DNA of 64,000 bases from Trypanosoma brucei (Eukaryota), in NCBI GenBank assembly GCA_000002445.1, contig CM000207.1, positions 736,001 to 800,000 of the forward strand, read 5' to 3'. Below are positions 2,367-60,837 of the stretch, piece by piece. A program made the position numbers and the translations under genes. The first letter of the stretch is position 1. Each line of letters begins with the position of its first letter. Below the pieces are notes generated by a model, which saw nothing but the letters and a program-made list of their open reading frames with translations, was not told the DNA's origin and ran no database searches.

Positions 2367-2390
2367 CATACATACATACATACATACATG
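2367..2390. repeat. (CATA)6 microsatellite
   Basis: Direct read: catacatacatacatacatacat. Confidence 0.9.
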
Positions 2391-10698: not shown

Positions 10699-10941
10699 TA
10701 GCCATACCAAAAGACTGTAAAGCACAACCGCTCTGCAACAAGCACTAAGGGAAGAAAGACAGGTGATTGTGGATACGGTTGAACCTGAAGGGAAGGGAAG
10801 CAATCGGGACAGCAGTGGTGCGCGCCACGTGTGTTTGTGGGAGGAAGGCTTGTTAAGGTTGGCGAAATCATCTTAAAAGCCACCATTCACACCCAGTAAG
10901 TATTGTACTTCATAGGAAGCCTTTGCTTTTAAGATCCGATA

Positions 10942-24405: not shown

Positions 24406-25177
24406 TTGGTGGGGATAATTTTTCCCGTCGCGTTTGCATGTGCATGTGTGTATATGTGTGTGTGCGTGTGCGTGAAGGGACGCTGCTGGCGTGCCACTGT
24501 GGCATTATAATTTTGTTCTGTGCTGGGAATGCGCCGAATGCGTTAGAAGATGACTCAGTTAAAGCAGAATGGGGGGAAAATTTAAAAAAATGAGGAGGGA
24601 AAGAAAGAAAGAGAAGAGAATCATTATCGTACGTGGAGGTTTGAGTTTTTTTTCTTTATTGTTCCTTATCATTCCATGAAAACGAAATCATGAGGTTTAG
24701 CGGTTTTACCCCCTACCCCTACTCCCATTCTCATCTCTTTCTCTTTGCCTCCCCTTTTCCTTTTTTCCTTTTACCTATTTTTTTTTTGTATAGGCATGTT
24801 TCGGTAAAAGCAGGGGGATGGTGGCACTTTTACTTTCCTTCGACGCGAGGCCGACTGAACTTTCCACTATGATGAAGCGGGAAGATGCGGTAAAGGGTTA
24901 AAAAACGGAGTGAACGATTTTTATTAATTTGTTTAAAAAGAATGAAAAGAGGAGGTATTAACGAATTGTGTGGATAACACGAAGCGTTTTTTTAATAAAA
25001 GGAAGAAAGAAAGGGAAAGCACCTTGTTGTGCTGTATCCTCTTCTCCACATTTTTAATGATGACTGCGTGGTTTTTCTTTCTTCCTTCTCTCTTTTTATT
25101 CCTCTCAGAAGTATGTCTACCCCCGAAAATATATAAATATCCAAATATGCAGGTGTGTCTGTATTTATGTTTATGTT

Positions 25178-25180
<3 letters not shown>

Positions 25181-25210
<30 letters not shown>
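25181..25210. repeat. (AT)15 microsatellite
   Basis: Direct read. Similar (TA)n blocks occur near 19445-19468, 25646-25666, 26349-26375, 45106-45125 and 63318-63350. Confidence 0.9.
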
Positions 25211-25214
<4 letters not shown>

Positions 25215-27642: not shown

Positions 27643-30288
27643 ATGACCGAATCTGAGAAAGCCCGTACCGTGACAGGGAGGGGACTCGTGGATTTACCTC
27701 AGCGGTTTAGTCAAGTGGACATAACGTACGCGGCATCCACATCCAACCAAACATCCGCTCGAACGGCTGAACCAACAGCTCCGATTCTTACTGACATTGA
27801 GATTACTGAAAAGGCTAGTCTGGTAAATGATGTCAAAGGCGCTTACGCCTCAGATGGGTATCCGATATGTTGCTCAGGAAGCAAAACGGGTGGTGCCCTA
27901 TACGGTGCTTTCGTGGAGCTTCGGAACCCTTCCCTGCATGGTGTAACGTTGCCACCAGCGGAAACTATCGTTGTTGCCAGCACTCCCAGCGACCCCGTTA
28001 AGCACTTCACTTCGGGGGGTGAAGGTGGCTCTCATTCAACTAATGGATCCGATGCTGATGGTGTGACTGCGGCGAGTAATATAGTTGACCCTCGCGCAGC
28101 CATCCTGCGTATTGTTTGGAAGCGTGGATCACATCTGCTTAATCCACATGCAGCAGAGCACTTGGATCTCCCAATGAAGGAAACACCCACCAAGACTGAG
28201 ATGTCGACATCAAGTGTAGTGCTTCCAAAACTTCCATGCTACGGGATCGAACGGCACCTGCGGCGGTTTCCCGATGGCGTGCACAGTGTGGACACTTCTC
28301 CCCGACTGAATGAACTTCTCTTGGATATTCCACCGGGTTCAGTGGGGGATACTGTGAAAACAGCACCACAAGAGCACGAGAAAAAGGCAGTTGACGATTT
28401 CCCTGATGGGGCAACCAGGGGTGCAAAGAAACGTACAAACAGTAATGGCAGCAGGAAAAGCAGAAGGAACAATAGATCGAAGGGCAATAATGCAGATATG
28501 GATGGAGATGACACATCTCCAGAGGATGGTGGCGGACGGAAGGGGGCGCCGTTACGAGAAAAGGAGCCCATGGGAAATGCACCTGTACAACTAACACTAA
28601 TAACAGCATGCAGTTTTAACCACCTCACTTTGTATGCTGTACGTCACCAGGCAGGAAATGTATTGGCGTTCGTACCACTGCAGACCATCATCGCCTCTGT
28701 AACGACGCGAAAAATTACCAGTCATTGTGTGTTTTTGCTGTCCGTTGATACATACGAGTCCTATGATTCCCCGGGTATGTGTACCTCTGGTGCTTCACCA
28801 GTATTGCACGGGGCGGAGAAGAAGGAACCGAAGAGAGGGACCGTGAAGCAAAAGCAAGGCCTTGGCGGTCAAGCGCTCAAAGGAGAAGGTGACAGCACTC
28901 CGCCATGTGAAGGGGGAAAGGAATTTTTGTTTGAACCCGTTCAAGTAGGTGGGGAGAGTTCCGGTGGTGGGGGAGTCATGCGCGTGGCGACCGTCTTTCT
29001 TGCGGTGGAGCCCTACTTGTTGCTGGGTAACCAGAGTGGGGATATTATGCTCTTCAGCGTTTTCAAGGGAAAAGTGGTGCAGCGGCTCAACCCTTCTGGA
29101 CTTCCCAGGTCAGACTCTTTCTTCAGAGGAAGCCAGGAAGATTCGACGGGGTCAAAGCAACTAGTAGGTGCAACTGTCTCGTGCATTGTGGAAATAAGCT
29201 GCGGTGCGGAGAAACGATTGACACGTTTAATTAGCAATGCGATTGCATCCCGTGTACGGGGCAGAGATCGTTTTACAGCTCCTTCTGTTGGAGCTGCGGG
29301 AACACCACCTTCTGTGTTTGCCGTCGGTTTTGATGACGGTCAGGTGCTGCTTGTGGACGTGACGGCTGAAGGAGCCTGCTTAAGTAAGCGTGTGAGCTCA
29401 TTCAGCGGGAATCCCATCCACGGGATCGCTATGCGGGCACCTCACTACTTTACAAGGGTATGGACTTCTCAGCAGTACATGAAGGGATATGAAAAGCAAC
29501 GCTCTCCCATATGCACGGTGTTTACACATGCGGATACCCTTACCTTCAACGAGGACGGTGCCATTGCCGCGGTATCTTCTAATGGCGGTGTCCTGCGTCT
29601 CCTGCGAGCACCCGAGATGGATGAGGAAGTGTGCCGATTGGCAACTCTTCACTGTGACACCGCAGGGGATTTCTTGTCTTTGCAGTGGATGTCAAGTTGT
29701 GTCGGTACAGCGCTTCTTCCTGATCTCCTCATCGCCACGAGCGAAGATGACAGTATTGGCGTTTACCAGTTTGTGCAGTCAAGGAATTGCACGACCAGCT
29801 TGGTTCGACAAGATGGTTTCACACCTGAGAGACCTAACTTTAATGCAAGTATGGATACTATACATGACAATATTACATTGATCTCACGGCGCTTCTTCCA
29901 TCACTCTTGGGTAGTTAATCTTACCACGATGCAGCGCCCCAACGGGAGTCTTCTGATCGCTACATCTTACGATGGTCGGAGTTCCTTCTGGCCAATCAGT
30001 TACGGCGGCACCACCGCCACTAATACTCCTGGCGGTTCACTCCCCCGCGGGGGAGGCTCTGAGGTGTCACTCCAAAAGTGCCTATCAGATTATCTTATAA
30101 GGGATATGGGTGCTAAGCTCCACAGTTTCGGGCACGTGTTTCCATCCCACCCAGCGGCGTCGTTTGTCCTTCACAAGGGCGACATATCGCGGTGCATCGT
30201 TGGTGGGGCTGGGAACAGTTACTTTATAGTTTCATTATGTTTGCAAGGGTTTGTGAAAGTATGGGAGGTGAAATGGAGTGGGGGATGA
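27643..30288 (+). CDS. Hypothetical protein, 881 aa, with WD40/beta-propeller-like repeats in the C-terminal half
   Basis: Blade-like motifs are present: GFDDGQVLLVDV, LLIATSEDDSIGVYQF, LLIATSYDGRSSFWPI, and C-terminal GFVKVWEV. The N-terminal half is low-complexity and basic (KKRTNSNGSRKSRRNNRSKG). Confidence 0.5.
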   Translation: MTESEKARTVTGRGLVDLPQRFSQVDITYAASTSNQTSARTAEPTAPILTDIEITEKASLVNDVKGAYASDGYPICCSGSKTGGALYGAFVELRNPSLHGVTLPPAETIVVASTPSDPVKHFTSGGEGGSHSTNGSDADGVTAASNIVDPRAAILRIVWKRGSHLLNPHAAEHLDLPMKETPTKTEMSTSSVVLPKLPCYGIERHLRRFPDGVHSVDTSPRLNELLLDIPPGSVGDTVKTAPQEHEKKAVDDFPDGATRGAKKRTNSNGSRKSRRNNRSKGNNADMDGDDTSPEDGGGRKGAPLREKEPMGNAPVQLTLITACSFNHLTLYAVRHQAGNVLAFVPLQTIIASVTTRKITSHCVFLLSVDTYESYDSPGMCTSGASPVLHGAEKKEPKRGTVKQKQGLGGQALKGEGDSTPPCEGGKEFLFEPVQVGGESSGGGGVMRVATVFLAVEPYLLLGNQSGDIMLFSVFKGKVVQRLNPSGLPRSDSFFRGSQEDSTGSKQLVGATVSCIVEISCGAEKRLTRLISNAIASRVRGRDRFTAPSVGAAGTPPSVFAVGFDDGQVLLVDVTAEGACLSKRVSSFSGNPIHGIAMRAPHYFTRVWTSQQYMKGYEKQRSPICTVFTHADTLTFNEDGAIAAVSSNGGVLRLLRAPEMDEEVCRLATLHCDTAGDFLSLQWMSSCVGTALLPDLLIATSEDDSIGVYQFVQSRNCTTSLVRQDGFTPERPNFNASMDTIHDNITLISRRFFHHSWVVNLTTMQRPNGSLLIATSYDGRSSFWPISYGGTTATNTPGGSLPRGGGSEVSLQKCLSDYLIRDMGAKLHSFGHVFPSHPAASFVLHKGDISRCIVGGAGNSYFIVSLCLQGFVKVWEVKWSGG

Positions 30289-32687: not shown

Positions 32688-35600
32688 ATGCTGGTCGCCA
32701 CAGCGTCCGTTACATCTCATGGCTGTGCCACCGATCTTTCGACGAAGACAAGATCAGCGTCCGTCACGATGGAAGGTGAAAGTGTTAGGAGTGACGAACG
32801 GCATCACGTTAACGTGAGGGGAGATGAGAGCGAAGGTGTTAGTGTGTCTCTACTTTCCACACGTCACACGGTTCACGCTCTCAACAAGCAGTCATCCAGC
32901 GCGTGGGTGACGACAAAGCTAGTAGAGCAATGTGTCACGGGCTACCGAGATGCACTCTTGGTCATTCGGGAATATGGACACCGGGTTGAGGGAGAAGGTC
33001 TGCATCTGCGGTTGCAACTTGGTGAGGCCCACCGCGAACTTCAAAGTAAAGGTGGGCTGGGGGCCTCTGTTACGCATATTGTCGAGAAGCAGCTCTCGGA
33101 ACATTTGATGCAGAACGGTAACGCGAACATCTCTCCCCGTTCCGAGTCCTTACGACACCGTCAGATTTTGCGCGACATGAAACACCTAGCACACGGGCTT
33201 TTAATACCTCTCGATATCTTCCGGCATCAGCACAACTGGCTGTTAGTGCAAGAGGATGTCCAACTAAGTCTGGCCGATCGACTCCGACACTACCGTGTGG
33301 TGGTGCGACAGGCTCCACCACCCGCTTTAGTGGAACGCCTCTGGTTTGACCTCTGGGCGCTTTTGGGCGCAGCGTGGCGGCAGCGCGGACGGCTTCTAGG
33401 AGTTTATGCGGAGGGTGTTCTTCCAGTTAACGTGGATGGTGGCACCGCAGTTGTTCCACCGTCAGTTTTGAGCCCCCCATCGCACCGTGAAGCCTATCGT
33501 GAGGGGCAACGTGAATACCGCTCCAAGCGGATGGAGGGATCGCCGGCCAGTGGGGTACCGGCGGATGCCGACGATTGTTACGCATTTGGCCCAATTACGC
33601 CACATCGAGTGGGAATCATGCCATCGCGCCACTACACCATCCGATGGCCACTCATGTCAATTTTACGTTCCCTGCGTGTGCGTGTGGCTGGCAAGAAACC
33701 GGGGTCGGAGTCCGGAATAAGGATTGCAATGTCAGCAGGGTCACTAGGGGAACCGAAGGATGACCACCAAGAGGAATCTGACAAATGTGCACAGACCTCT
33801 CGTGGGTCTGATTTCTTTTCTCCGAGGGTGTCTTGCGGGTCCGTTGGTGGTAGCTCACAGGAATATCCTGCTGCCTTTTTTGACCTATCGTCAGAAGATA
33901 TCGAAACGTGCCGTGTGCCATACTTGTCCCCAGAGTGCTTCACACAAAGGTTTCGTAGCGCTGGATGCCATTCGAGTGAACCAGTGGAAGTTTCTGTGTC
34001 TCATCGGTTCTCTGATGATGTCTGGAACATAGCCGTCCTCACCATAGAATTTATGTTGACTAACTTTCCCCTCGAACAAAGTTGCTGCCACCACGCGAGT
34101 TACCAAGGTTTCAGAACAAGTTTTATATTCGATGATATTATTGAGTTGCTCGTAGTATATCACAACATACCGCTTAGAGCCGCGCAAAACTTCGTTTACG
34201 CAGCATTGCACGAGCTTTCACTGCTCGTGTCGGGGGTTGAACAAGTTGGTGTAGATTCAGGTGAAGGTAGCGTACTGACTCCGCGCTGCCTGGCCCAGCA
34301 ATGGAAGGACTATTTAAGTGAAACGTGTAGTAACAGTACTGTGCTGCGGGAGGTGGTGACAAACGGTTTGCTATGGCTGCGCCGTGAGCGGTGGGAGGTT
34401 TTTCAAACTGTTCACTCTCTTGACGATTATAAGGAGGGAGAGTGTGGCAACGGGAGCAACGGGTGTATCGGGGGTGACGACAACGAGAAGAATACCAGCA
34501 GCCGGTACGGGGACGGTGCAGCGAAGAGGGTATTGGACACTTTGGTAAGCCCTTATCTGCCGCTGAATCCGGCTCTCTGTTCCGCTGTGTTACGGGAAGG
34601 CGGGGAGGCATCTCAAGGCTCACTTAGCATCACGGGTTCGATTCAGCAGTGGTGTGAAAAAGAGGATGCGTTTTGGCATACGCAATTTGATGATCTACAA
34701 TCGACGGTGCAGAAATGGAGGAAGTGTATTGAACGCTACACGGTGCTCGGTGGTATGAGCGGTAAAGGTAATGAGGCGAGGCAAACTGTTCTTTTCAAGC
34801 GTCTCGTTCGGGTCGTACGATCGGTGCTGCAGCTTCAACTCGAGAAGGTAAAGGCTGGTGATCAAACCAAGACCATTCTCCTAAGCAGTGACAGGGAATC
34901 CCGCCGTATGCAGCGGGGGGAGGTCCTGAGTCATGCTGTGCAACAGGAGCTTTTGCGTGGCTTAACGGAGCGTGGTGCTCTTTTTATGCACATTTTGGAT
35001 CTTGTGCCGAATCAATTCGTACCCACCAATTCCACCGTTGCAGGTGATGCCCTCACCAGGGTGGTTCCGTTTTGCGGTGTCTTTATGTCCATCTCGCACA
35101 CTCTTTCGCAGCTGGAGAAGGACATGGCTCAACTTACTGAGTTGTCACCAGCGTCGACGGCGCCCTTCCGTGCCCTTGACACCATTTTGGGAGTGGAGTA
35201 CAACGCTGCACGTGTGACACACTTATCGGCCTGTCAGTTGAATGAGGAGGCGGATGAGGGGAAATTGAGTATGTTAGAAAATGTTAGGTCTGTCATTCGT
35301 CAGTTAGACCTCGACCTGAAGATGCAGGTGAAACTGGTGAAAGATATGAGGTGTCTGATGTGCACCAGCGTTCCCGTGGAAACGCGTGCTTCGCTCGTGC
35401 GACAGTACTTACTTCGCACCCAGGCGGCACATGGGACTGTAGAGGTTCCTATTCCAGCTACTCTTCGTGGTGAGATATGGGCCGTCCTTCTGTTGGTGTC
35501 CCCGGAACCTGAGGAACGAGCGTCTAGATATTTTGCGCTGGACACGGCGCGACCAACGCCGTGCAACCGTCAGTTATCTGTCGACATCCCACGTTGTCAT

Positions 35601-36881
35601 CAGTATCACCCACTACTGGCATCATCAGATGGTCACGAACGAATGTGGCGTATCATCAAGGCGTGGTTATTGCTGAATCCCGAGCTGTCGTACTGGCAGG
35701 GGTTGGATAGCGTCTGTGCTGTTCTGCTTGCCGCGTCTTTCCACGATGAGCCTCTTGTTTTAGCTCAGTTGCAGGAACTGACGCACAACTACATACCGCA
35801 CGACTTGGCATCCAGAGAGACAGATCTGCCACAGAGTATGGCTGGAAAGTTCCAGTTGTTCGCTGTGCTTCTGCGTTACTGTGATCCGCAACTTGCCACT
35901 CACCTCCTCGACACAGTTGAGTGCGGTCCCGAACTATTTGCGGTTGGATGGTTTCTCGCGCTTTTTGCACACGGCTTACCAATGGCGAAAGTGTTTCTTT
36001 TGTGGGATTTCCTCTTCGTGTATGCTGCCGTTTTCCCACACTGCCTTGCTGTCCTTTGCCTTGCCGTTCTGTTGCAGCACCGCGAGCAGTTGATGTCGCA
36101 CGACTTCTCTGTATGTGTGGGCGCGCTCAGCCGTGCGAGGGATATTGAAGTGCGGATCGTGTTGTATAACGCCTCACTATTGCTGCGAAGCACACCGCCG
36201 CTAGTCGGGGGACCGTGCGCTCCCACAGGCCAGCCCCACAGTAGCAGCAACTCCGTGCCACGCATGAGGGTGCGGACACTTCTTCAGGCATTTCGCCGCG
36301 TCCCTTTCGATGAAACGCCGTATGGGGAAGAGTGGACCCGCAACGGATTATTCCTCGTGGATCTACGGGAAACGAGGGGTGGTACAGCAAGCCTTGAGCT
36401 GGAAGGAGAGGAGCAGATGTGGTCAACGCAGCGCGAAACGGAGGAGCGTGTTGTTGGAGCTCTGCTCTTTCCACTTGTGTCTTGCCAGCAGGACGGTGCG
36501 GAAATAGATGTGATGCAGCAGGAGCTTCAAGGGCGGTTGGCTGTGCAATTGGCTTCTGAACTCTTATCACAAACACGTAACATCGCTTTAGCAGCCGTTC
36601 CACCGGTACCGTCGTCGGGGTCGCGACCGAGCGCAGGGATGAGACAGTGTGAAGAAAATCCTGCCGCTGGAACACAGCCAGAGGTCATTGCGAAACACTC
36701 AGAATGTCCTCATATTGTACTTTTTACACATTCTTCGAACCTATGTGAGGTGGCCACTTCAGAGTTGCTTGCGAGGGAATTAATGCGTTGCGGTGCACCA
36801 CATGTTTCAATTTTGCTTGGCGGCTTTGTACAGTTGAAGCGGGAGGCAGCTGATCTCATTGTGGAAATGGTCCCTACTTGA
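32688..36881 (+). CDS. TBCK-like protein: N-terminal kinase-like (probable pseudokinase) domain, central TBC RabGAP domain, C-terminal rhodanese-like domain
   Basis: Kinase C-lobe subdomains VIII and IX are visible (PYLSPECF then SDDVWNIAVLTIEFM), but no GxGxxG, VAIK or HRD motifs. The TBC domain has the arginine finger LSVDIPR (IxxDxxR) and the glutamine finger YWQGLD (YxQ). A C-terminal rhodanese-like segment (HIVLFTHSS...VSILLGGF) lacks the catalytic Cys. The start may be the internal Met (MEGESV). Confidence 0.7.
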   Translation: MLVATASVTSHGCATDLSTKTRSASVTMEGESVRSDERHHVNVRGDESEGVSVSLLSTRHTVHALNKQSSSAWVTTKLVEQCVTGYRDALLVIREYGHRVEGEGLHLRLQLGEAHRELQSKGGLGASVTHIVEKQLSEHLMQNGNANISPRSESLRHRQILRDMKHLAHGLLIPLDIFRHQHNWLLVQEDVQLSLADRLRHYRVVVRQAPPPALVERLWFDLWALLGAAWRQRGRLLGVYAEGVLPVNVDGGTAVVPPSVLSPPSHREAYREGQREYRSKRMEGSPASGVPADADDCYAFGPITPHRVGIMPSRHYTIRWPLMSILRSLRVRVAGKKPGSESGIRIAMSAGSLGEPKDDHQEESDKCAQTSRGSDFFSPRVSCGSVGGSSQEYPAAFFDLSSEDIETCRVPYLSPECFTQRFRSAGCHSSEPVEVSVSHRFSDDVWNIAVLTIEFMLTNFPLEQSCCHHASYQGFRTSFIFDDIIELLVVYHNIPLRAAQNFVYAALHELSLLVSGVEQVGVDSGEGSVLTPRCLAQQWKDYLSETCSNSTVLREVVTNGLLWLRRERWEVFQTVHSLDDYKEGECGNGSNGCIGGDDNEKNTSSRYGDGAAKRVLDTLVSPYLPLNPALCSAVLREGGEASQGSLSITGSIQQWCEKEDAFWHTQFDDLQSTVQKWRKCIERYTVLGGMSGKGNEARQTVLFKRLVRVVRSVLQLQLEKVKAGDQTKTILLSSDRESRRMQRGEVLSHAVQQELLRGLTERGALFMHILDLVPNQFVPTNSTVAGDALTRVVPFCGVFMSISHTLSQLEKDMAQLTELSPASTAPFRALDTILGVEYNAARVTHLSACQLNEEADEGKLSMLENVRSVIRQLDLDLKMQVKLVKDMRCLMCTSVPVETRASLVRQYLLRTQAAHGTVEVPIPATLRGEIWAVLLLVSPEPEERASRYFALDTARPTPCNRQLSVDIPRCHQYHPLLASSDGHERMWRIIKAWLLLNPELSYWQGLDSVCAVLLAASFHDEPLVLAQLQELTHNYIPHDLASRETDLPQSMAGKFQLFAVLLRYCDPQLATHLLDTVECGPELFAVGWFLALFAHGLPMAKVFLLWDFLFVYAAVFPHCLAVLCLAVLLQHREQLMSHDFSVCVGALSRARDIEVRIVLYNASLLLRSTPPLVGGPCAPTGQPHSSSNSVPRMRVRTLLQAFRRVPFDETPYGEEWTRNGLFLVDLRETRGGTASLELEGEEQMWSTQRETEERVVGALLFPLVSCQQDGAEIDVMQQELQGRLAVQLASELLSQTRNIALAAVPPVPSSGSRPSAGMRQCEENPAAGTQPEVIAKHSECPHIVLFTHSSNLCEVATSELLARELMRCGAPHVSILLGGFVQLKREAADLIVEMVPT

Positions 36882-41125: not shown

Positions 41126-42421
41126 ATGTCACTCAGGTCCACAATTCAGACGCATTTTACCGTACCCACGCGACATCATAGCACGCGGCAGCGCTCTTTT
41201 AGTGGCATGTTTTCTGCACCTGCTTCAACCACAGCAGGGGCTCCAACACCGATTCGGCGGTTTCCACTCAACAACACGCAAGCGGAACCTTCGCTTGGCT
41301 CACCATGTGAACTGGACTTCCAAAAGGGTGCTTTAACTGGCGATTGTGTGTGCGCCGACCGCCAACTGGAGTGGTTACGGCGAAATCTTGTGAAGTCGGA
41401 GAAGAGGGATTTTCACGGCATGAGCAAGGTGAAGATGCCGGAAGGGAACCCATCATGGCCACGTTACCATTTTCCGCTGCGTAGCTGCTCTTACATTTAT
41501 GATCCTCCCAACGAATCTAAGCTTGCGTTTATTACTCCAGAGAACTACTGCAAACTCTGCTGTGAGCCAGTTGAGTTGCCCATTCGCCATTGCGCATGGT
41601 GGGATCATGTGACACGAATGGCGGGCCTCCGCTTGACTGCTATTTATCCACGGCGTTGGGATCCATCTGCTCTGATGCAAGAGCTGTGGGCAGGGAAGTT
41701 TCCCGTGAGGTTTATGAATACCGAACGGCCACATCCTTACCTGCGCCCATCACATGACGGTCCGTCGTGGAGCGATTTACGTCAATGCTATGTTTTTGAA
41801 AGGGAAGCGGTTGTACGACGGGGCGAATTAAGAGCAATTTTGCACATACTATCCACAGATGTTAGTGGCGGTAGGCGGGTGCTGCGGGAATCTTTAGTGC
41901 TCTCACCCGACGGAAGCTACGCAGCAAACGTTGGTGAGCGCACTTTCCGGGCCTTCATCAGCAGACACATCACACCCTTGCTACCACCCATGGGCCCTGA
42001 GCCAACTACAAGGTTGCAACAGCGTTGCTGGGGCCGAAAAAACCTCGAGGCAATGTTTGATCTTTTGGGAGTAGAGGCGTTACAGAGACTTAGTGGTGTT
42101 GAGGAGGTGGCAGTAACCAAGAATGAGAAGGCTACTGTGATGCGCCAAATAGTTTATGAACTGACAACCGTGTTGTCCGAATGCGATGCTAGAGAGCTGT
42201 CGGCGAGCAACGAACATGCCAATGAAGGTGCGCATAGCGTAAAAATCGCGAAAGATGAAACTCACATGCAAGTCCGGCTGTTGGTGGAGTTGGCACTGCA
42301 GCGTTTGTCACATGAACTGATCCATCTTCACATGATGTTGCTCATAGAACGTGTGTGGAATGCGTATGCGAACCTGGGATACCCAGGTGAAGAAGCGTTT
42401 GAGGAAAGCACCTTTTGCTGA
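41126..42421 (+). CDS. Hypothetical protein, 431 aa, with an Arg/Ser/Thr-rich N-terminus consistent with a mitochondrial presequence
   Basis: Long ORF co-directional with the cluster. The N-terminus is MSLRSTIQTHFTVPTRHHSTRQRSF. No catalytic motif recognised. Confidence 0.5.
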   Translation: MSLRSTIQTHFTVPTRHHSTRQRSFSGMFSAPASTTAGAPTPIRRFPLNNTQAEPSLGSPCELDFQKGALTGDCVCADRQLEWLRRNLVKSEKRDFHGMSKVKMPEGNPSWPRYHFPLRSCSYIYDPPNESKLAFITPENYCKLCCEPVELPIRHCAWWDHVTRMAGLRLTAIYPRRWDPSALMQELWAGKFPVRFMNTERPHPYLRPSHDGPSWSDLRQCYVFEREAVVRRGELRAILHILSTDVSGGRRVLRESLVLSPDGSYAANVGERTFRAFISRHITPLLPPMGPEPTTRLQQRCWGRKNLEAMFDLLGVEALQRLSGVEEVAVTKNEKATVMRQIVYELTTVLSECDARELSASNEHANEGAHSVKIAKDETHMQVRLLVELALQRLSHELIHLHMMLLIERVWNAYANLGYPGEEAFEESTFC

Positions 42422-42568: not shown

Positions 42569-44971
42569 TTGTGCTGCCAAGGTTTGATAGTTTATGTCAA
42601 TTTCTTTCCTCAACAAGAGCTTCAAAGAAGAAGTCGCTTTGTTTTCAAAGGCCGTGACACCCGACAACGAAAGTTGGGTGGTGGACGGTTTGTTGCAGAG
42701 GTGTTAAACGAAGCATGCTTGTTCTCTGCTGTTTCTCTCTCTCTCTCATGTCATTACTGCAGTCCCCATCCGTGGCGCGTGCAGAAAAAAAGGATCTGTG
42801 GAAAAATGAATGACCAGGACCGTTTTCACTCTCCCCTCTGGTGTGTGAATTACCCAATCGAGTTATGCTATTCTTCTAGCTGTCTAACACATCCCCTCTC
42901 ATCTAATTATTGCTGTTGTTTTCAATGCACATATCTTTCCCTCAAATTGTGTGGCATGAACGAAGATACAGTTGTTTCTTGGAGAAACTCCTTTTGTACG
43001 ATGGAAAACGCAAGGAATCTGGAGCAAACGATCCCACCAGTTAGTGTCCCTTGTCAAGCTGAAGACTCTGCTCATCCCTCGCTGCAGCAGGGCTCATTGT
43101 TCCCCTCTCGATTTTCTCGGTGCGTGAGTCCAGGCTCCATGCCGCTCCAACCAGATGCAGTTGTAGACGACCAGGCGGAGCCCACTTCGCCGCCGATATC
43201 ACACAACCAAAATGATGCCACATCGAACCCGAATGCTCCTGACGCATCCGTAGCACCGCGACCGGTGGAAGCCTGTGCCATAAGCACATTGGTTAATGAC
43301 GATTCCTCTACCTTCCATCGGTCGCTGGATGCGCCTGAAGTTGTAAAGTCACCCGCGCTAACAGTAAGGAGACGTAAGATTGTCGCGGGAAGTAATTCCT
43401 TCCGCGGCTCAACTCAACTTGCCCAGAACTCTGTCAGTGATTTTAGCCTATCCAGGCAACACGTCGACGATTTTTCACTTACCGATGCGGAGAGCAAACA
43501 TACTAATGGAATGTCCTTCAGCTCTCATGTTGCTGCGATCCCCATGCATGCGGTTGCGAGCTTGCTGTTCACAACACAGAGGAGGTCATTGATGGGACAT
43601 TACTTCCACACGTGGTGGAGGTGCGCCTTGCTCGCTCGCCAAATTGGGGCTAATTTCAGAAGTCCCGAATCATCAAGAGAGGCTGCATCGACAGATTTGA
43701 GGAAGGCAGTGAGTGTCGCGCAAGCGAACCAGTTGTTAGGCAGGACGGAGATCCCTCACTTGAACCGGCCCGCGCTAATGTCATGCGACAGTTCCGTAAA
43801 CGCCTCGCCATTCACTTCGCCCGTAAAAAGAGGGATCTCAACGGGAAAGTGTGTACCCAGCTGCTGCGCCCCGTCGTCGAGAGCTTCGTCTGCTCACCGG
43901 AGCCCTGGAATGCTGCTGGTCCCATTTGGCCCCACGAGAGGCCAGTCCCCAGCCGTGCGGGGGCTTCAAAGGTTGAGCATAGGAAATTTGCAATGTTCAA
44001 GAGATTTCTGCACGGGTATGACAAGGGAGACCCGATCCGACAGTGGAAGTAGCGGCACCGACCAACGCCCACCAGCGATTTCAGTAGATATGCTCCACGT
44101 TTATACGAGCATATTAACGGAAGAGGAGTGGGGGGCTCGCACCACAGTTATGCGAGAAGAGGCTTCCGAACGCTACAAAATTCAAACGCTCACAAGTGAG
44201 GTATTAGATCGAGATTTTAAGGAAGCTTTGTGTAGGAGGAGGGCTGTCATGCTTCGTGGATGCCCGCAATCGGATGGTTTGCGAAGAGCAAAAGGTGGCG
44301 GTAAAAGGGAAGCTTGTGTTGACCGCCACCACTTACCGGGGCGGCCGGAGGGTTCGAGTGAGCGTCAAGGGTGTGCTCCGTTACCAAACTCAGCGGCCGC
44401 GATATGCGTGCTGCCGGAAGCTGCAAATGCTCCGAAAAGCGAAAGTAAAGATGACCCCTTAAACGGCCTCATGGCGTGTACTTCTCCTCCATCGTCTCAC
44501 GGCTGCAACCCACTAACAGCCGGGCCCGTAGGCAATACAGCGGGTGTGTCTCATGGAATACTACCCAACTCGTGCGCTTCTTTAGCAAGCAGTGGCGCTC
44601 ACGCAGAGAACAGCATCTCCATTTGCATATCCAACTGTTCCGAAAACACGGTGGAATCAGGTCGACCTCACAATCCCTCCGAAGCCCCAAAAGGGGACAC
44701 AACAGAGCCGATCAGGGAGCCGTTGGGATCGTCCAAACCCCAAAAAGATGATACGACCGCTGCAGACTGCACGGAAGCCAAAAAATTATTGGACGACTCA
44801 TTGGAGCTTGACCTTCAGAGGTATTTGCAGCTGGATTTAGTGGATAGGGAACGTGAGGATAGGCTTCGCATCGTAAAGAAGTACCGCAATGGTCTACAGC
44901 AACTGTTAAACATTTTCTTTGGGAAGAAGCACTGTCGAACACGTCCTAATGATACTAGTAATCAAAATTAA
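42569..44971 (+). CDS. Hypothetical protein; the annotated ORF is 800 aa but the true start is probably near 42956 (MNEDTVVSW), giving about 671 aa
   Basis: The first ~130 codons of the ORF translate low-complexity UTR-like sequence (tctctctc gives SLSLS). Downstream is a Ser/Pro/Ala-rich, probably disordered protein with a C-terminal acidic/coiled segment. Confidence 0.45.
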   Translation: MCCQGLIVYVNFFPQQELQRRSRFVFKGRDTRQRKLGGGRFVAEVLNEACLFSAVSLSLSCHYCSPHPWRVQKKRICGKMNDQDRFHSPLWCVNYPIELCYSSSCLTHPLSSNYCCCFQCTYLSLKLCGMNEDTVVSWRNSFCTMENARNLEQTIPPVSVPCQAEDSAHPSLQQGSLFPSRFSRCVSPGSMPLQPDAVVDDQAEPTSPPISHNQNDATSNPNAPDASVAPRPVEACAISTLVNDDSSTFHRSLDAPEVVKSPALTVRRRKIVAGSNSFRGSTQLAQNSVSDFSLSRQHVDDFSLTDAESKHTNGMSFSSHVAAIPMHAVASLLFTTQRRSLMGHYFHTWWRCALLARQIGANFRSPESSREAASTDLRKAVSVAQANQLLGRTEIPHLNRPALMSCDSSVNASPFTSPVKRGISTGKCVPSCCAPSSRASSAHRSPGMLLVPFGPTRGQSPAVRGLQRLSIGNLQCSRDFCTGMTRETRSDSGSSGTDQRPPAISVDMLHVYTSILTEEEWGARTTVMREEASERYKIQTLTSEVLDRDFKEALCRRRAVMLRGCPQSDGLRRAKGGGKREACVDRHHLPGRPEGSSERQGCAPLPNSAAAICVLPEAANAPKSESKDDPLNGLMACTSPPSSHGCNPLTAGPVGNTAGVSHGILPNSCASLASSGAHAENSISICISNCSENTVESGRPHNPSEAPKGDTTEPIREPLGSSKPQKDDTTAADCTEAKKLLDDSLELDLQRYLQLDLVDREREDRLRIVKKYRNGLQQLLNIFFGKKHCRTRPNDTSNQN

Positions 44972-52839: not shown

Positions 52840-55800
52840 ATGAAGCGGGATGAACTGTTTGCTGCTTTGCAGGAAATACCGTGGGTTCCATGCCCGGAAA
52901 GTGAGGGTCGTCCATGCTACCGAGCAGCAGAAGCATTTCACTGCACATTTTGTGCATACACTGTTTGCGCTCGGTGTTATGACGCCATTCCGTCGTCCCT
53001 TCTCTCATTGGCAACCACAACAACTAGTGGCGGCACCGGCGGTGAAGGTGGCGCTGCGACAAACTCAGAAAAGAGTCTTGCCGACAGGACACCCACCCAA
53101 GCGTTTACTCCAAACTCACGCGGGAGTGACACACCTAACAGTGCCGACGACTTCATGAAACCCCGCTGTTTTTTGTGTCGCTCGGGGGTTCTCGAGAAGG
53201 AATCTGTGCCCGTGTTCGAATGGACATGTGAGGGTCCACGTCCTCCACGTCGACTCACTCGAGGTCAAGGGGCATCGTATGATGTGGATGTGGTTCAGCG
53301 TTACTACACCATGAAGGAGCAACGTGAGAAGAGAGCCCAATCGCAAGCACCGCTAACGGCTCAGTTTCTCGGCACAGAACCGTCGCCCACCGAGTTTGGT
53401 GGCAACATCGGTGTGCCTCCGGAGGCATCTCGCACTGGAGTGTTGGGTCGGCGGCCGTTCTGTGAGGAGGGTTGTAGTTTTTCGTGTGTTGTGCAGAACC
53501 CAAGGTTGGAGCAATCGCTAGTATGGTGTGGCGTGAATCGGCAGCTGCGGGAGTCCCACCCCTCCATCACAGGGGAAGAGACCATTACACCGTTGCACAC
53601 GATTCGCTGTCCACCTACTCTCCCAGGGTTACCTCCGCATAGGCTCCGGGTGCACATTCCATATGGCTCGTATGGCATTCATAAGATCCATGCAGTGGCG
53701 CTGTACGTCACCGAGGACATCTACCGGAGAGCTACGGCGAGGTCGGGGTCGCCTCGACCTGTTGTCAAATCACCAGGAGGTCGACGGATGGAACAGGGAC
53801 ACCCACAGCGAGATGGGCAGTTGATGGCGGTTAAGGAGCTGCCACGCAACACCGTACGCCCGTTGCTCGTTGTCGACGTACTGCATCGTACCGCCACCAG
53901 CGATCCGGTGAGGAATCTTTTGCCAACGCAATGGCTTCCGGAGCATATGCGACGTCCACCTAGCAGAATCTGCTCGCCTAGAAGAGAAAATAGTATCACG
54001 GAGACGGCGGGGTGTGTTGGCTCAGGTGTGACAAAGGGGAACGAAGGTGAGGGTCAGAATAATGGAACTGAAACTAAAGGCAACGCAGAGCCTCCTGTTA
54101 TGGGGGAAGGTGAACCCCACTTGACGTGGCCAGAGGGGATCCGATGCGAGGAACTGTTGCTAGCGGTTGACTATCTGCTACAGGGCCGTTCCGTAGCTGT
54201 GTACGGAATTGCATCAAAATACTTTTTTCTTCACCACGTTGCGCAATCCGCCGAGTTAAGAAATTTGGGAGTAGCCTTTGTGGATGGCTACCGCTCTTCT
54301 GCAAACCGTGTGACTCGGCAGCTGCGGGAAATTAGCAAGCAATTGCAGGAACAGCGTCATATCGTAGAAAAGGAGGTGCTGCGCAACCTCGTTTTTCGTG
54401 GAGGGGACTGTGATCCGTTTCTGCGTATCAGTCGTTCGCAAGCACCGTCGCGGGATGAATGCGGAAACCCGTCTGATCAATGTTATTTGGTGGTTTCCTC
54501 CTCAACATCCTCGGAGTCGTCGCGAAGTCGCTCTTACCGCTCCCCTGTGAGAGACGTTTCGGTCGCGATGATGGGCGGTTCCACCGAAAAAAGGCGAGAA
54601 AATATGGGACTAAAAGTGGGAGATCCTGGTTGTTGTGACTTAACTGCAGCCAAAACATTAAAGGCGACTACCCCACAGCGCAAGGAGAGCATGACTGTGT
54701 GTTCCCCCGCACCCATTACTATGAAGCGAGAACGGTCCGTGATGCTTGTGCAGGATGGTGGGCACTCTGATATTAAGAGAACTACTCAGCAAACTGCGCA
54801 GGGTTCGAAAAGACGGTGCGGAGAAAAAGTGTGTGACGCTGCCGGAACGGGTGGGTGGCGCCAAACTCATCCTGAGGCTATGGAAACCAGCAGAAAAGTG
54901 CGGTTGTGGCTGCGACGGTATTACCTGAGCGAGGTATCAGACTGGAATTACAGCGTACCTTTATATGAAACTCCTTGTGAGCGGCGATGCCGGGAAACGG
55001 AAACGGCCGTAACGTCGGTTCCGCTATCGGAGAGTGAAAACACTTGCCTGCAACCACGGTATACGGTTTCATCTCCAGACATCATGCGCCGGCTTCGTGT
55101 CGAATGCGGCGCTCCCCTCCGTTCGTGCGTGCAGTGGAAGTCGCTTCCATCCTACACAGCTCAGATGCTCACGGGGGGACTTGCTGCACAATCTGCCAAT
55201 CCTCCAGTTCATTATAGCGACTATGTTCCGAGGTTGATCCTAGTAGTGCATGGTATAGACGAACTCGACCCACCACTTCTGGTAGAGCTTCAGAACATTG
55301 CACGTGACCATCCCAATCGTGTAATGTTGCTATGCTCATTCGACGACCCAAACTGGGCCATGTCAAACAGTGCGGCGCAGTTGGAGCCGTTTCGATTGGC
55401 GTATGTACACCTCCGCTCGATGTTGCTCCCACGGGTGCATGAAATGGCATGTGTTAAAAGTCTCACGTTGCTCACAGACCTTGAGGCAGCAGCAGCAGGG
55501 GGGAAAAGGTTTGGTCATCACGGGTTAAGAGGAAGTCTTGGCCCTGGGACCTCTTTACCACTTCAAGACACCATTAGACGTATACTTTTTAGTCTTCCCG
55601 CCACGTTTACTGATGTCTTACGATGCATGATTGAGCGACAGGAAGCGTCGGGCGAAAATGTCTTCGTTCCCATGAGTCTCCACCAGCAACACTTCGACGA
55701 TCGAGGAATGATGATTTCAGTGGGCCGCCTCAGAGCGATTGAACGGGAACTAACATCCAATCGGCTGGCTGTGTTTGATGCAGCAGAAAATAAATTGATG

Positions 55801-55896
55801 ATTCCTCAACACAAAAAACTGCTGCGGGTGTTGGAGGAAGTCGCGGGACAGAGACAAAACACTCGGTCAAACGGTGGAGCTCCAGTGGAGGCATAG
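52840..55896 (+). CDS. Divergent ORC2-like protein (candidate origin recognition complex subunit 2), 1018 aa, with an N-terminal Cys-rich zinc-finger-like segment
   Basis: GRSVAVYGIASKYFFL resembles the ORC2-family block N-I-L-L-Y-G-L-G-S-K. LILVVHGIDELDPPLLVELQNIARDHPNRVMLLCSFDDPNW resembles the ORC2 block I-H-N-I-D-G...L-I-A-S-I-D-H-L-N-A-P-L-M-W-D. The N-terminus CPESEGRPCYRAAEAFHCTFCAYTVCARCYD is Cys/His-rich. Recognition is by eye only. Confidence 0.45.
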   Translation: MKRDELFAALQEIPWVPCPESEGRPCYRAAEAFHCTFCAYTVCARCYDAIPSSLLSLATTTTSGGTGGEGGAATNSEKSLADRTPTQAFTPNSRGSDTPNSADDFMKPRCFLCRSGVLEKESVPVFEWTCEGPRPPRRLTRGQGASYDVDVVQRYYTMKEQREKRAQSQAPLTAQFLGTEPSPTEFGGNIGVPPEASRTGVLGRRPFCEEGCSFSCVVQNPRLEQSLVWCGVNRQLRESHPSITGEETITPLHTIRCPPTLPGLPPHRLRVHIPYGSYGIHKIHAVALYVTEDIYRRATARSGSPRPVVKSPGGRRMEQGHPQRDGQLMAVKELPRNTVRPLLVVDVLHRTATSDPVRNLLPTQWLPEHMRRPPSRICSPRRENSITETAGCVGSGVTKGNEGEGQNNGTETKGNAEPPVMGEGEPHLTWPEGIRCEELLLAVDYLLQGRSVAVYGIASKYFFLHHVAQSAELRNLGVAFVDGYRSSANRVTRQLREISKQLQEQRHIVEKEVLRNLVFRGGDCDPFLRISRSQAPSRDECGNPSDQCYLVVSSSTSSESSRSRSYRSPVRDVSVAMMGGSTEKRRENMGLKVGDPGCCDLTAAKTLKATTPQRKESMTVCSPAPITMKRERSVMLVQDGGHSDIKRTTQQTAQGSKRRCGEKVCDAAGTGGWRQTHPEAMETSRKVRLWLRRYYLSEVSDWNYSVPLYETPCERRCRETETAVTSVPLSESENTCLQPRYTVSSPDIMRRLRVECGAPLRSCVQWKSLPSYTAQMLTGGLAAQSANPPVHYSDYVPRLILVVHGIDELDPPLLVELQNIARDHPNRVMLLCSFDDPNWAMSNSAAQLEPFRLAYVHLRSMLLPRVHEMACVKSLTLLTDLEAAAAGGKRFGHHGLRGSLGPGTSLPLQDTIRRILFSLPATFTDVLRCMIERQEASGENVFVPMSLHQQHFDDRGMMISVGRLRAIERELTSNRLAVFDAAENKLMIPQHKKLLRVLEEVAGQRQNTRSNGGAPVEA

Positions 55897-57741: not shown

Positions 57742-60700
57742 ATGTATTTCCCGCGTCACCAACATGAAAAAGAGCCCCGGGGTAGGTTCAATCCACAGGC
57801 ATTGGATTGGCTTCCGGGTATGGTACAAATGGCCACATTACCCCCTGCGCCCGTTGCCACGTACCCGCAACATTTCCCTTCCGTGCATTATAACAATATG
57901 ACTGACGGCCCTGCAACTCTTCCTTGTTTCCCAGACTTATTTCGAGATTGGTTGCATGGTGGTGTGATGTTCCCTCCATTTCCTTTCGCTGGTGGGCCTT
58001 CTGATGGAGCATATTACCCGACGGGACCCCAGCACCCTCAATTATGTCCACAGAGTGCAGAAGGCTGGATGGAAGCTGAACAACGTTACTACAAATACTT
58101 TCATCCGTTTTGGTGTGCATATCAACGGTTTTTGAGGGATTGTTATACACGACCTGTGACGAACGATTTATACTCTGCAGTTCCCACGAGTCACCAAACC
58201 CAACCACCAGCGGTGGCAACAGCAGATATCGCCACGTTTACCCGTGAAGGGACCCCATGGACGCAAAATTGGGGGTGTGACGCCCAGCACAAAGAGAATA
58301 CGGTTTCCAACAAGTGTGACAGCTGCGTGAAGTTAGCAGCCCCCACACATGCCGGAGGTGAGGTGTTACCTGGGGATTGCGAGACCACTGCAGGCGAGTG
58401 GAGGGAAATTTCGTCTCTTGCACTCTCCTCGTGCTTGTTGTGTGGCGACACGGGCCATCGTTACACCGCATGCCGCTTTTTTGACGGGAAGACATTATGC
58501 TTGGTACACATCGCCGACTCATACATCTACGCGATGCACCACAAGAACTGGGTTGAGAAGGCAACGTTGCTAGACGTGTGTTCCTTTGTCCACGTGGCCG
58601 TAGGCATCTTGCCAAAGAACTTGTTGTTGTACATTGGCGATCACGTACTTGACGTTACGTCTTACGAGACTGACGCTCGTTGCTGTGACTTGGATCTTCT
58701 TCCCGGTGCGGTGGTTGGTGTTGCCACTCGGCATGAGGCTGTCCCGGAGATGGAAAGCAAGGGACCTGCAGAACAATTCTCTGAGCCACGTGTTGAAGAT
58801 CAATGTTTGAAGGTCTCGCCTATATCAAAGGCCTCGGCATCGTCTACCTCACTCCACACATCGGAAACGCAGGAAGGGCTCCTTGGGCGCAACGAGAGCC
58901 GAGAGGGAGACAACAATGAGTCACCAGGTGTTGACGATATTGAAGCAGACAGAAGGAAGGCGGATGCAGTGAGGCAGCGGCAGAGTCCTGTTGCTGCGCC
59001 ATATTTAGGCACTACAGATGGTGATTTAAACTCCACTCAAACACGGGCACAACAGCAAACTGCGAGCATCCCCACTTGTGACCGGCCAGAACCGCAAGGA
59101 GGGTTGGAAGGAAAGGCATGTGACGAAATAGAGAGTCACAATGACATTGTAGACTCCGCGCAAGGAGAAGAGGTAAGTGACGCTCCCGTGGAGAGTAACG
59201 GCAAGACAGAGAGCGATGGACGCCGTCGCCGAACGGTTCACGTGAGGTTCATACCAGTGTCCATGGCATTTTCTGACATCCGGGCTCTTCTCTGGTCATG
59301 TGGAGAGGTCTACAAGGTCCGACTTGTGAAGCCAAAAACGACCCCGAACCCTGATAAGATGTTTTATGTTTGTTTCGTTGAGTACGCTGAGGAGCAGGCA
59401 GCCCTGAAAATGTTGGAGATGCATGGTCACCGTATCGCCGCATCTTTTCACCTCGCGGTAGAAATCAGCAAACACGCCATTCTTGGGGGCTATGTGACAG
59501 ACCGTGACGTGGGTACTGGTAAACCCTGCACATTTGGGCTAACTGACACTGAGCGCTGGGCTATAGAGCAGCGCCACAAACGTCCCGGAGCTGGTTCTGC
59601 TGGTAGCGGTAACGGTGAATGTGCTGAGGAAGGGGGCTATGAAGGCGAAGGAAAAGGAGGAAGGCGGTGTCGTCGCGGTGGCCGAAAACATCGAGGTAGA
59701 GCTCGCCAATCTACCCCTACTTCAGGGGAAACTCCCAATGGTTTGGGTGAGGCGGGGAAACAATGTACCGGCGGACCCTATTCACTGCAAATCGTTGCTG
59801 AAGACTCGAAACGGAAGAGCTGTCGCGGCAGCCACCGCATTACCGATGCGAAAAGTGGAAATGGAACTACCGGTGCGGTGGGTGAGTTACCACAAACCAC
59901 GCTGGCAAACTCTGATTTAAGCACTAAACCAATACAGTCTACGGTGTCAACGCCTCGTGAGGTGGTGGGGCATATCTCAGTGACTGCGGAGGAAAGTAAG
60001 CTTCTCGAGCATCTCCGCAACGCTACCATATCGTACCTCCGGTGCCCTTCCAAACGAAGCTTTTACGAGGTACTCACTGTGCTTGAAGACGTTAAGTTGT
60101 GTTCCCCTTCCCCTCTGTGCTGCCTCCACCTCACCAAAGCTGAGGTGGCGCTGCTTTTCCTTCACAGGTCTTCGGGGTTTGTGGAAGCGGCCGCAACGGC
60201 TGCCAATGGAGCGGTGCGCGCAGGGGAGGAACTGTCGCATCTGATGGCGAGAGATGCGAGCAGCCAAGACCACATCGGTGCTTCGTGGAGTTCCTTCTTC
60301 ACCGCATCTCATCCATCCCTCTGTGGCCACTGGAAAAATTGGCGAGACATGGTGTACGGTGATGAAGAGGAAAGTGGTGAGGGATCGCGAAATACCAAGT
60401 CAGATGGAGGCACAGCAACCGCATCATATCCGCGAGTCGGCAGAGTGTTGTGTTTCGTTGAGAGCCTCCTCCACATTGCGTTGTTGTGTGACAGCCTCTT
60501 AATGCATGAGCTGGAGAAGGACTGCGAAGGGAAATTTGTCATGCGAAACATTGATGCAGATTCACCAGGGGTCGGAAAAGTTATGTGGAAACTTGTTTGT
60601 TGTATCCGTCGCCTCCTCCAGAGGCTCCGAGCATTTGCTACAGAAAGTGATGGAAGCGGGCGGGAGGATCGGACAGTTTTGTCACCGCGGTGGCTCACCA

Positions 60701-60837
60701 CTGTTGCCCGCGTTTTGGTGCTTCTTCCTTCAGAAGCTGAGTGGCACGTGGGAAACCTACTTGACGCATTTGTTCCTTGCGCGTCGGACTTGCCGGTCGC
60801 AATTTTGGAAGATTTAGCGGGTATTCGGTTGTTCTAA
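57742..60837 (+). CDS. Putative RNA-binding protein with a CCHC zinc knuckle and an RRM-like domain, 1031 aa
   Basis: Zinc knuckle CLLCGDTGHRYTAC (C-x2-C-x4-H-x4-C). RRM-like segment TVHVRFIPVSMAFSDIRALLWSCGEVYKVRLVKPK...FYVCFVEYAEEQAALKMLEMHGHRIA. A Gly/Arg-rich stretch (GGRRCRRGGRKHRGRAR) is present, and the C-terminal third is Leu-rich. Confidence 0.55.
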   Translation: MYFPRHQHEKEPRGRFNPQALDWLPGMVQMATLPPAPVATYPQHFPSVHYNNMTDGPATLPCFPDLFRDWLHGGVMFPPFPFAGGPSDGAYYPTGPQHPQLCPQSAEGWMEAEQRYYKYFHPFWCAYQRFLRDCYTRPVTNDLYSAVPTSHQTQPPAVATADIATFTREGTPWTQNWGCDAQHKENTVSNKCDSCVKLAAPTHAGGEVLPGDCETTAGEWREISSLALSSCLLCGDTGHRYTACRFFDGKTLCLVHIADSYIYAMHHKNWVEKATLLDVCSFVHVAVGILPKNLLLYIGDHVLDVTSYETDARCCDLDLLPGAVVGVATRHEAVPEMESKGPAEQFSEPRVEDQCLKVSPISKASASSTSLHTSETQEGLLGRNESREGDNNESPGVDDIEADRRKADAVRQRQSPVAAPYLGTTDGDLNSTQTRAQQQTASIPTCDRPEPQGGLEGKACDEIESHNDIVDSAQGEEVSDAPVESNGKTESDGRRRRTVHVRFIPVSMAFSDIRALLWSCGEVYKVRLVKPKTTPNPDKMFYVCFVEYAEEQAALKMLEMHGHRIAASFHLAVEISKHAILGGYVTDRDVGTGKPCTFGLTDTERWAIEQRHKRPGAGSAGSGNGECAEEGGYEGEGKGGRRCRRGGRKHRGRARQSTPTSGETPNGLGEAGKQCTGGPYSLQIVAEDSKRKSCRGSHRITDAKSGNGTTGAVGELPQTTLANSDLSTKPIQSTVSTPREVVGHISVTAEESKLLEHLRNATISYLRCPSKRSFYEVLTVLEDVKLCSPSPLCCLHLTKAEVALLFLHRSSGFVEAAATAANGAVRAGEELSHLMARDASSQDHIGASWSSFFTASHPSLCGHWKNWRDMVYGDEEESGEGSRNTKSDGGTATASYPRVGRVLCFVESLLHIALLCDSLLMHELEKDCEGKFVMRNIDADSPGVGKVMWKLVCCIRRLLQRLRAFATESDGSGREDRTVLSPRWLTTVARVLVLLPSEAEWHVGNLLDAFVPCASDLPVAILEDLAGIRLF

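Follow-up and report, generated by a model that had tools for sequence, protein, structure and literature searches.

Which protein takes the place of Orc2 in the origin recognition complex (ORC) of trypanosomes? The question is raised by one locus in a 64,000-nucleotide stretch of the Trypanosoma brucei genome (contig CM000207.1 of assembly GCA_000002445.1, positions 736,001 to 800,000 of the forward strand; hereafter the window, to which all positions refer). There, an open reading frame (ORF) at 52840–55896 had been proposed, from the letters and their translation, to encode a highly divergent ORC2-like replication-initiation protein. Here we identify this ORF as the published gene Tb3120, and we conclude, with a probability of about 0.9, that its product is the Orc2-equivalent subunit of the diverged T. 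brucei ORC. The Pfam ORC2 family matches the protein above threshold, ORC2 chains come first in a fold search and the protein is in print as an Orc2 candidate. The main point is already known, as the protein, its interaction with TbORC1/CDC6, its role in replication and its assignment to Orc2 have all been published. The only possibly new detail is an N-terminal module composed of eight conserved cysteines and a predicted beta-sandwich.

The reading frame is Tb3120

The ORF starts with ATG and encodes the 1018 amino acids that had been claimed for it. Its position and those of two published primers are as follows.

52840..55896, + strand: complete Tb3120 coding sequence (1018 amino acids plus stop), ORC2-like subunit of the T. 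brucei ORC (ORF, 100% identity, primers)
55245..55263, + strand: Tb3120 forward tagging primer, gene-specific part AGTGCATGGTATAGACGAA (0 mismatches, within the VHGIDE codons)
55874..55893, − strand: Tb3120 reverse tagging primer TGCCTCCACTGGAGCTCCAC (exact match, ending at the last sense codon)

Over all 1018 residues, the encoded protein is 100% identical to XP_803758.1 / Q38F90 from T. brucei brucei TREU927, an entry that is still labelled ‘hypothetical protein, conserved’ at NCBI and UniProt. Tb3120, the legacy identifier of which is printed as Tb09.10.3120, was published as a protein of 1018 amino acids that has orthologues in T. cruzi (48% identity) and in L. major (LmjF01.0660, 24%) (PMC3297607). 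The primers are those given for C-terminal tagging of Tb3120 in the methods of a later study (PMC4889932), and no match to AGTGCATGGTATAGACGAA is expected in the window by chance. Both published primers match exactly, and the identity and the length agree; the ORF is therefore Tb3120, with no sequence difference from the published gene.

Published function and assignment

Tb3120 was reported in 2012 to co-immunoprecipitate with TbORC1/CDC6, and its depletion by RNA interference (RNAi) led to growth defects and anucleate zoids (PMC3297607). Co-immunoprecipitation with ORC1/CDC6, which had been suggested as a check of the sequence-only reading, had thus already been carried out with a positive result. 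Stem-loop RNAi of Tb3120 impairs nuclear DNA replication and lowers the incorporation of 5-ethynyl-2′-deoxyuridine (EdU), and the protein is nuclear at all stages of the cell cycle; the RNAi phenotypes copy those of TbORC1/CDC6, though they are later and milder than those of TbORC1/CDC6 or TbORC4 (PMC4889932). [quoted passage not shown] An orthology pipeline reported confirmation of Tb3120 as ORC2 in 2020 (PMC7058166), and a 2025 paper still speaks of a ‘weak homology’ between the protein and Orc2 (PMC12539117).

An ORC2 RecA-like domain in two parts

A Pfam search for the ORC2 family, the other check that had been suggested, returned the profile RecA-like_ORC2 (PF04084) above its curated threshold for the full-length protein (E 1.6e-7; 31.3 bits, with a gathering score of 25.1). 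The best stretch, amino acids 765–934, covers profile positions 110–249 of 251, and at E ≤ 10 the Pfam scan of the protein returned no family other than PF04084, and so no other AAA+, Cdc6 or ORC family. Amino acids 421–520, searched alone, match profile positions 48–108 (E 0.0036) and are collinear with the second stretch. When amino acids 501–754 (254 residues) were deleted in silico, the two stretches became one continuous match to profile positions 49–249 of 251 (E 4.5e-11; 42.9 bits); the architecture is therefore that of a complete RecA-like domain of the ORC2 type into which a segment has been cleanly inserted. PF04084 is also matched independently by 12 of 17 orthologues and by distant metagenomic members of the family (P0029, P0036 and P0042). 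The two parts of the domain and their motifs are located as follows.

54115..54396, + strand: first part of the ORC2 RecA-like (AAA+-like) domain, with beta1, degenerate Walker A ‘VYGIASKY’ (amino acids 454–461), alpha1, beta2 and a long helix at 488–519 (PF04084, AlphaFold secondary structure)
54190..54231, + strand: motif 1, SVAVYGIASKYFFL, ORC2-type degenerate Walker A, amino acids 451–464 (position, conservation)
55102..55539, + strand: second part of the ORC2 RecA-like domain, with CxxWxSLPS (amino acids 763–771), beta3 bearing the Walker B-like ‘LILVVHGID’ (799–807), beta4 ‘VMLLCSFDDPNW’ and beta5 (PF04084, AlphaFold)
55234..55356, + strand: motif 2, LILVVHGIDELDPPLLVELQNIARDHPNRVMLLCSFDDPNW (LILVVHGIDELD...SFDDPNW), amino acids 799–839 (position, conservation)

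Motifs 1 and 2 are the two blocks in which the sequence-only reading had recognized ORC2-family signatures; both are present, and they fall collinearly within the stretches aligned to PF04084 positions 48–108 and 110–249. Across the 17 orthologues, Y455, G456, S459, K460, F463 and L464 are invariant in motif 1, as are H804, D807, L817, L830, L831, S833, F834, P837 and W839 in motif 2. No 25-residue block elsewhere in the protein is as strongly conserved as that in the first part of the domain (mean identity 0.82), and strands are predicted in the second part at 799–804, 828–833 and 853–858. The degenerate motifs VYGIASK (454–460), VVHGID (802–807) and SFDDPNW (833–839) are of the ORC2 type and match the ORC2-specific patterns YG-x-x-SK, H-x-[IV]-D and S-[IF]-D-x-x-N/P-x-W. 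They also fit the ORC2 forms of Walker A (YG-x-G/A-SK) and Walker B (h-h-h-H-N/G-h-D), and as motifs they do not vary within the family.

To place these motifs on human ORC2, we aligned the insertion-deleted core of the family to the single human sequence using hhalign, for motif correspondence only. LILVVHGID is paired with human LFLLIHNLD (VVHGID with LIHNLD), LLCSFDDPNW with human LIASIDHLNAPLMW, the SFDDPNW block with human ASIDHLNAPLMW and SLPL..RRILFSLP with human SLPL..HVLRSLTP. The Walker A region is matched to ORC2 through Pfam only and not in the hhalign alignment.

The segment that separates the two parts forms one further feature.

54397..55101, + strand: lineage-specific insertion splitting the RecA-like domain, about amino acids 520–754 (model confidence, conservation, in-silico deletion)

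Conservation in the insertion region is 0.12–0.32, and the predicted local distance difference test (pLDDT) of the AlphaFold2 model is below 50 over amino acids 519–796, from which the insertion is predicted to be disordered. Short conserved islands occur within it (for example, RSxSYRxP around amino acids 562–569), as do three [ST]P.[KR] sites; a regulatory role for the insertion would be speculation. In the model, it is predicted to enter after the long helix that follows beta2 (amino acids 488–519) and before the Walker B strand. The insertion itself has been described before, as a spacing of 258 amino acids between two weak Pfam regions of ORC2 homology (PMC4889932). The long low-complexity linkers noted from the sequence correspond to poorly conserved segments with low AlphaFold confidence at amino acids 51–105, 183–203, 302–329, 350–438 and 519–796.

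The protein is 1018 amino acids long in TREU927 and in T. equiperdum, and 1019 in T. b. gambiense DAL972 and in a protein from a Logan assembly (P0001 and P0050); the difference is an indel of one residue between motif 1 and motif 2, inside the insertion region.

Fold match and winged-helix domain

An AlphaFold2 model of the full-length protein was built from the 17-sequence alignment and used for local Foldseek matching only. Its more confident parts are amino acids 440–520, 801–850 (means over blocks of ten residues, 68–85) and 911–1000 (81–92). Among 350,542 chains of the Protein Data Bank (PDB), ORC2 chains from fly, human and yeast were found at ranks 1–6 (4xgc_B, 7jgr_B, 5ujm_B, 7jgs_B, 6wgc_B and 6wgi_B), 8 (5zr1_B), 13 (5v8f_B), 25 and 28; the named chains, down to rank 13, have E-values of 4.6e-5 to 3e-3 over 238–289 aligned columns and 13–18% identity. 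Template modelling scores were low owing to the long disordered regions. The chain labels were checked by a PDB search with the human ORC2 C-terminal sequence, and all read ‘Origin recognition complex subunit 2’. RFC clamp-loader subunits were among the matches that followed, and the top 50 included no Orc1, Orc3, Orc4 or Orc5 chain; we take the matched entries to be structures of whole ORC that also include these four subunits. When PDB sequences were searched by phmmer with the protein as query, the single match (E 0.2) was rejected as spurious.

The fold match extends into the C-terminal domain.

55552..55872, + strand: C-terminal winged-helix-like domain, amino acids 905–1011 (AlphaFold, hhalign, Foldseek)

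This domain is the best-predicted part of the protein, with a block mean of 77 for amino acids 1001–1010 beyond the values given above. The model consists of helices at 907–918, 922–937, 945–954 and 961–973, strands at 978–980 and 985–987, and a final helix at 991–1011. The hhalign alignment runs on collinearly into the human ORC2 segment whose winged-helix structure has been solved (5c8h_A), and the region lies inside the Foldseek alignments of roughly 270 columns to ORC2 chains.

Comparison with known initiators

Like eukaryotic Orc2 (PF04084; 4xgc_B, 7jgr_B, 5ujm_B and 5zr1_B), Tb3120 has a RecA-like domain with degenerate motifs of the Walker A and B types followed by a C-terminal winged helix and, according to the literature, is a partner of Orc1 that is needed for replication. 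It differs from eukaryotic Orc2 in that identity in the structural alignments is as low as stated above, in the interruption of its RecA-like domain by around 250 amino acids, in its predicted N-terminal cysteine and beta-sandwich module and in its total length, which is 1018 amino acids in T. brucei and about 1300–1650 in Leishmania and related genera; canonical Orc2 is about 580–620 amino acids long and has no such N-terminal extension (PMC4889932). With the archaeal Orc1/Cdc6 protein of Aeropyrum pernix (‘ORC2’, 1w5t), which Foldseek matches at E 2.7e-4, Tb3120 shares an AAA+ initiator fold and a winged helix at the C terminus. The differences are that archaeal Orc1/Cdc6 proteins hydrolyse ATP, have canonical Walker motifs and act as single initiators, that Tb3120 has no Pfam Cdc6 or AAA match and that the archaeal match lies below six eukaryotic Orc2 chains.

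A narrow family

A homology search returned trypanosomatid relatives only: one cluster at 99% identity, which includes XP_803758.1 / Q38F90, and other relatives such as those from T. grayi (49%), T. cruzi (48%) and the Leishmania group. When a full-length family profile was run against 1.84 billion representative proteins, there were 35 matches, each of which was a member of the family or a fragment; named members include proteins from Bodo saltans and Novymonas. Judged by these sequence searches, the Tb3120 family is narrow and extremely diverged, which explains why the BLAST searches of 2012 had drawn a blank.

A cysteine cluster and a beta-sandwich at the N terminus

The N-terminal extension contains two features that are shared across the family.

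52891..53229, + strand: N-terminal Cys8 cluster, C18, C35-x2-C38-x4-C43-x2-C46, a variable loop (amino acids 51–105), C110-x2-C113 and C130; putative two-zinc module (orthologue alignments)
53284..53883, + strand: helix at amino acids 149–167, then a predicted beta-sandwich (strands within 173–290, helix 291–302, returning strand 343–348) (model of amino acids 1–350)

All eight cysteines are invariant or nearly so, both in the 17 trypanosomatid orthologues and in 15 diverse members that include the most distant metagenomic ones, and the loop between C46 and C110 is of very variable length across the family. The CxxC-x4-CxxC element occurs in almost every member in which the N terminus is represented; the two exceptions are P0034, which has a serine at the position of C43, and the gene model from Bodo saltans. 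The latter (P0033, CUG11640.1) begins immediately ahead of the beta-sandwich and has no Cys8 cluster. It is probably truncated at its N terminus, because P0027, a closely similar relative of metagenomic or transcriptomic origin, has the cluster.

The sequence-only reading had described this segment as Cys/His-rich and zinc-finger-like. The conserved cysteine cluster bears out part of that description. The term ‘Cys/His-rich’ is not quite accurate, because H34 is the only histidine in the first 140 residues and is not conserved (it is a tyrosine in Leishmania and related genera), and the cluster matched no described zinc-finger profile or fold in the Pfam search of amino acids 1–300 or the Foldseek search of the N-terminal model. 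The eight cysteines, mostly in CxxC pairs, would fit two Zn(Cys)4 sites; metal binding and the topology of the ligands are inferences from the conserved pattern.

A focused AlphaFold2 model of amino acids 1–350 had a mean pLDDT of 63 and a predicted template modelling score of 0.53, and the cysteine-bearing segments 31–50 and 111–120 exceeded a pLDDT of 80. Conserved motifs of the beta-sandwich are CEEGGSF, NPR, VWC, CPPxLPGLP and VPYGxY. Amino acids 1–300 matched no Pfam family at all, and Foldseek of the N-terminal model returned nothing with E < 0.03. The N-terminal extension was described in a 2018 review as having ‘no detectable features’ (PMC5814967); none of the Tb3120 papers cited here refers to the Cys8 and beta-sandwich module, and zinc is not mentioned by Marques et al. 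in 2016 (PMC4889932). The module is probably also visible in a publicly available AlphaFold model of Q38F90.

Evidence against the Orc2 assignment, and alternatives

Several results weigh against the assignment of Tb3120 to Orc2. In HMMER searches of the PDB, the full-length family profile found nothing, and hence no ORC2 chain, and the insertion-deleted core profile gave chance matches only (E > 1), none of them to ORC2; nor did the full-length profile reach any canonical ORC2 among the 1.84 billion representatives. The link to ORC2 runs in one direction only, through the broader Pfam profile and the fold, and we attribute the failure of the reverse search to the extreme divergence of the family. 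The hhalign alignment to human ORC2, used for motif correspondence, is collinear but weak (E 0.014, probability 3%). Confidence in the full-length model as a whole is low (mean pLDDT 47.5), Foldseek E-values are modest even for ranks 1–6 and 8 (4.6e-5 to 3e-4) and archaeal Orc1/Cdc6 is close behind at the E-value given above. Functional equivalence to Orc2 is still worded cautiously in the literature (PMC5814967).

Some of these results would also be expected if Tb3120 were an initiator-clade AAA+ protein that is not an orthologue of Orc2, such as a kinetoplastid paralogue of Orc1/Cdc6 or of another ORC subunit, with ORC2-like motifs that are convergent or ancestral. The family profile fails to reach canonical ORC2, the archaeal protein 1w5t nearly equals ORC2 in the fold search and, in 2012, PHYRE gave no more than a weak similarity to archaeal Orc1/Cdc6 (PMC3297607). 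We nevertheless consider such a paralogue improbable, as Pfam gives the ORC2 family alone even at E ≤ 10, ORC2 chains of three species outrank all other ORC subunits in the same PDB entries, the ORC2-specific degenerate motifs are present and the 2020 orthology pipeline assigns the protein to ORC2 (PMC7058166).

The Orc2 assignment is far less threatened by the idea that two short hydrophobic motifs match by chance in a long, partly low-complexity protein unrelated to replication. With 628 of 1018 residues at a pLDDT below 50 and only kinetoplastid relatives in BLAST-type searches, this idea has some appeal; we regard it as refuted by the collinear Pfam stretches and their E-values before and after deletion of the insertion, by the independent matches of orthologues to PF04084, by a fold match that spans the RecA-like and winged-helix domains together and by the published co-immunoprecipitation with TbORC1/CDC6 and RNAi replication defect (PMC3297607, PMC4889932). 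It is also very improbable that the protein has kept an ORC2-derived core and acts mainly outside origin licensing, in chromatin, at transcription boundaries or in the silencing of variant surface glycoprotein (VSG) genes, through its N-terminal module. That module is conserved, predicted to be folded and without counterpart in canonical ORC2, the Tb3120 phenotype is the later and milder one (PMC4889932) and depletion of TbORC1/CDC6 affects VSG silencing (PMC5814967). However, RNAi of Tb3120 lowers DNA synthesis and copies the TbORC1/CDC6 phenotypes (PMC4889932), and no data tie Tb3120 to other processes.

Proposed role in the trypanosome ORC

Tb3120 has three blocks: an N-terminal extension of around 350 amino acids with the Cys8 cluster and the predicted beta-sandwich, an ORC2-type RecA-like domain split by a lineage-specific insertion of around 250 amino acids that is predicted to be disordered, and a C-terminal winged helix. 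By analogy with other eukaryotes, it is probably a non-catalytic structural subunit, because its Walker A sequence ‘GIASKY’ has no serine or threonine after the lysine and its Walker B sequence ‘VHGID’ lacks the conserved acidic pair; both degeneracies are typical of Orc2. Together with TbORC1/CDC6, TbORC4 and the Orc5-like Tb7980, Tb3120 would help ORC to form a closed ring that encircles the DNA of origins, presumably from a position next to Orc3- and Orc5-like subunits. The RecA-like and winged-helix domains of Tb3120 would contribute to this ring, which would in turn help to load or recruit MCM2–7. The Cys8 and beta-sandwich module and the insertion would be kinetoplastid additions that, speculatively, serve contacts with chromatin or DNA, contacts with partners, or regulation.

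A more specific proposal for the N terminus is that the Cys8 cluster and beta-sandwich constitute an unrecognized module that binds zinc, is peculiar to the ORC2 of kinetoplastids and keeps ORC tethered to chromatin or DNA at the borders of polycistronic transcription units. We put this forward as a long shot, doubtful as it stands.

Genomic neighbourhood

Every ORF of at least 250 amino acids in the window is on the + strand, which we read as the arrangement to be expected of a polycistronic unit in a trypanosomatid. Almost all 2-kilobase (kb) bins over the 64 kb have a positive GC skew, in line with a single coding strand. Two segments, 1–4000 and 24001–28000, are markedly AT-rich (GC 0.32–0.40, compared with about 0.50 elsewhere). 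The other genes and ORFs recorded in the window are as follows.

3926–16567, + strand: tandem array of four genes that encode AMP-binding, acyl-CoA synthetase-like enzymes of 698, 708, 708 and 708 amino acids
17842–18957, 27643–30288, 41126–42421 and 42569–44971, + strand: ORFs with no Pfam match at E ≤ 1e-4
21331–23013, + strand: gene for a PRP3-like splicing factor
32688–36881, + strand: gene for a RabGAP-TBC protein of 1397 amino acids
47199–49706, + strand: gene for an HSP70-family protein of 835 amino acids
50575–52008, + strand, directly upstream of Tb3120: M16 peptidase of 477 amino acids (Peptidase_M16 and inactive M16_C), of the mitochondrial-processing-peptidase type
57742–60837, + strand, next gene downstream of Tb3120: protein of 1031 amino acids, no Pfam match at E ≤ 0.01

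By eye, the downstream protein of 1031 amino acids has a zinc-knuckle-like CX2CX4HX4C motif (CLLCGDTGHRYTAC) and a stretch resembling an RNA-recognition motif (VHVRFIPVSMAFSDIRALLWSCGEVYKVRLV...FVEYAEEQAALKML). The last three AMP-binding genes make up a repeat of about 3.5 kb, segments of which are 96–100% identical in both coding and intergenic sequence; the array is presumably the known ACS1–4 array of T. brucei.

Implications

The composition of the trypanosome ORC was a long-standing puzzle, to which Tb3120 is one published answer. The right family was inferred for this protein from its sequence alone; this is a rediscovery and adds nothing new on the main point. To our knowledge, TbORC1/CDC6 has no BAH domain and no Orc6 is known in the kinetoplastid ORC. 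If the tethering proposal were true, the N-terminal module of Tb3120 would stand in for targeting functions that have not been identified in this complex. The Cys8 cluster and the beta-sandwich are concrete targets for mutagenesis with which to ask how a diverged ORC is targeted or regulated.

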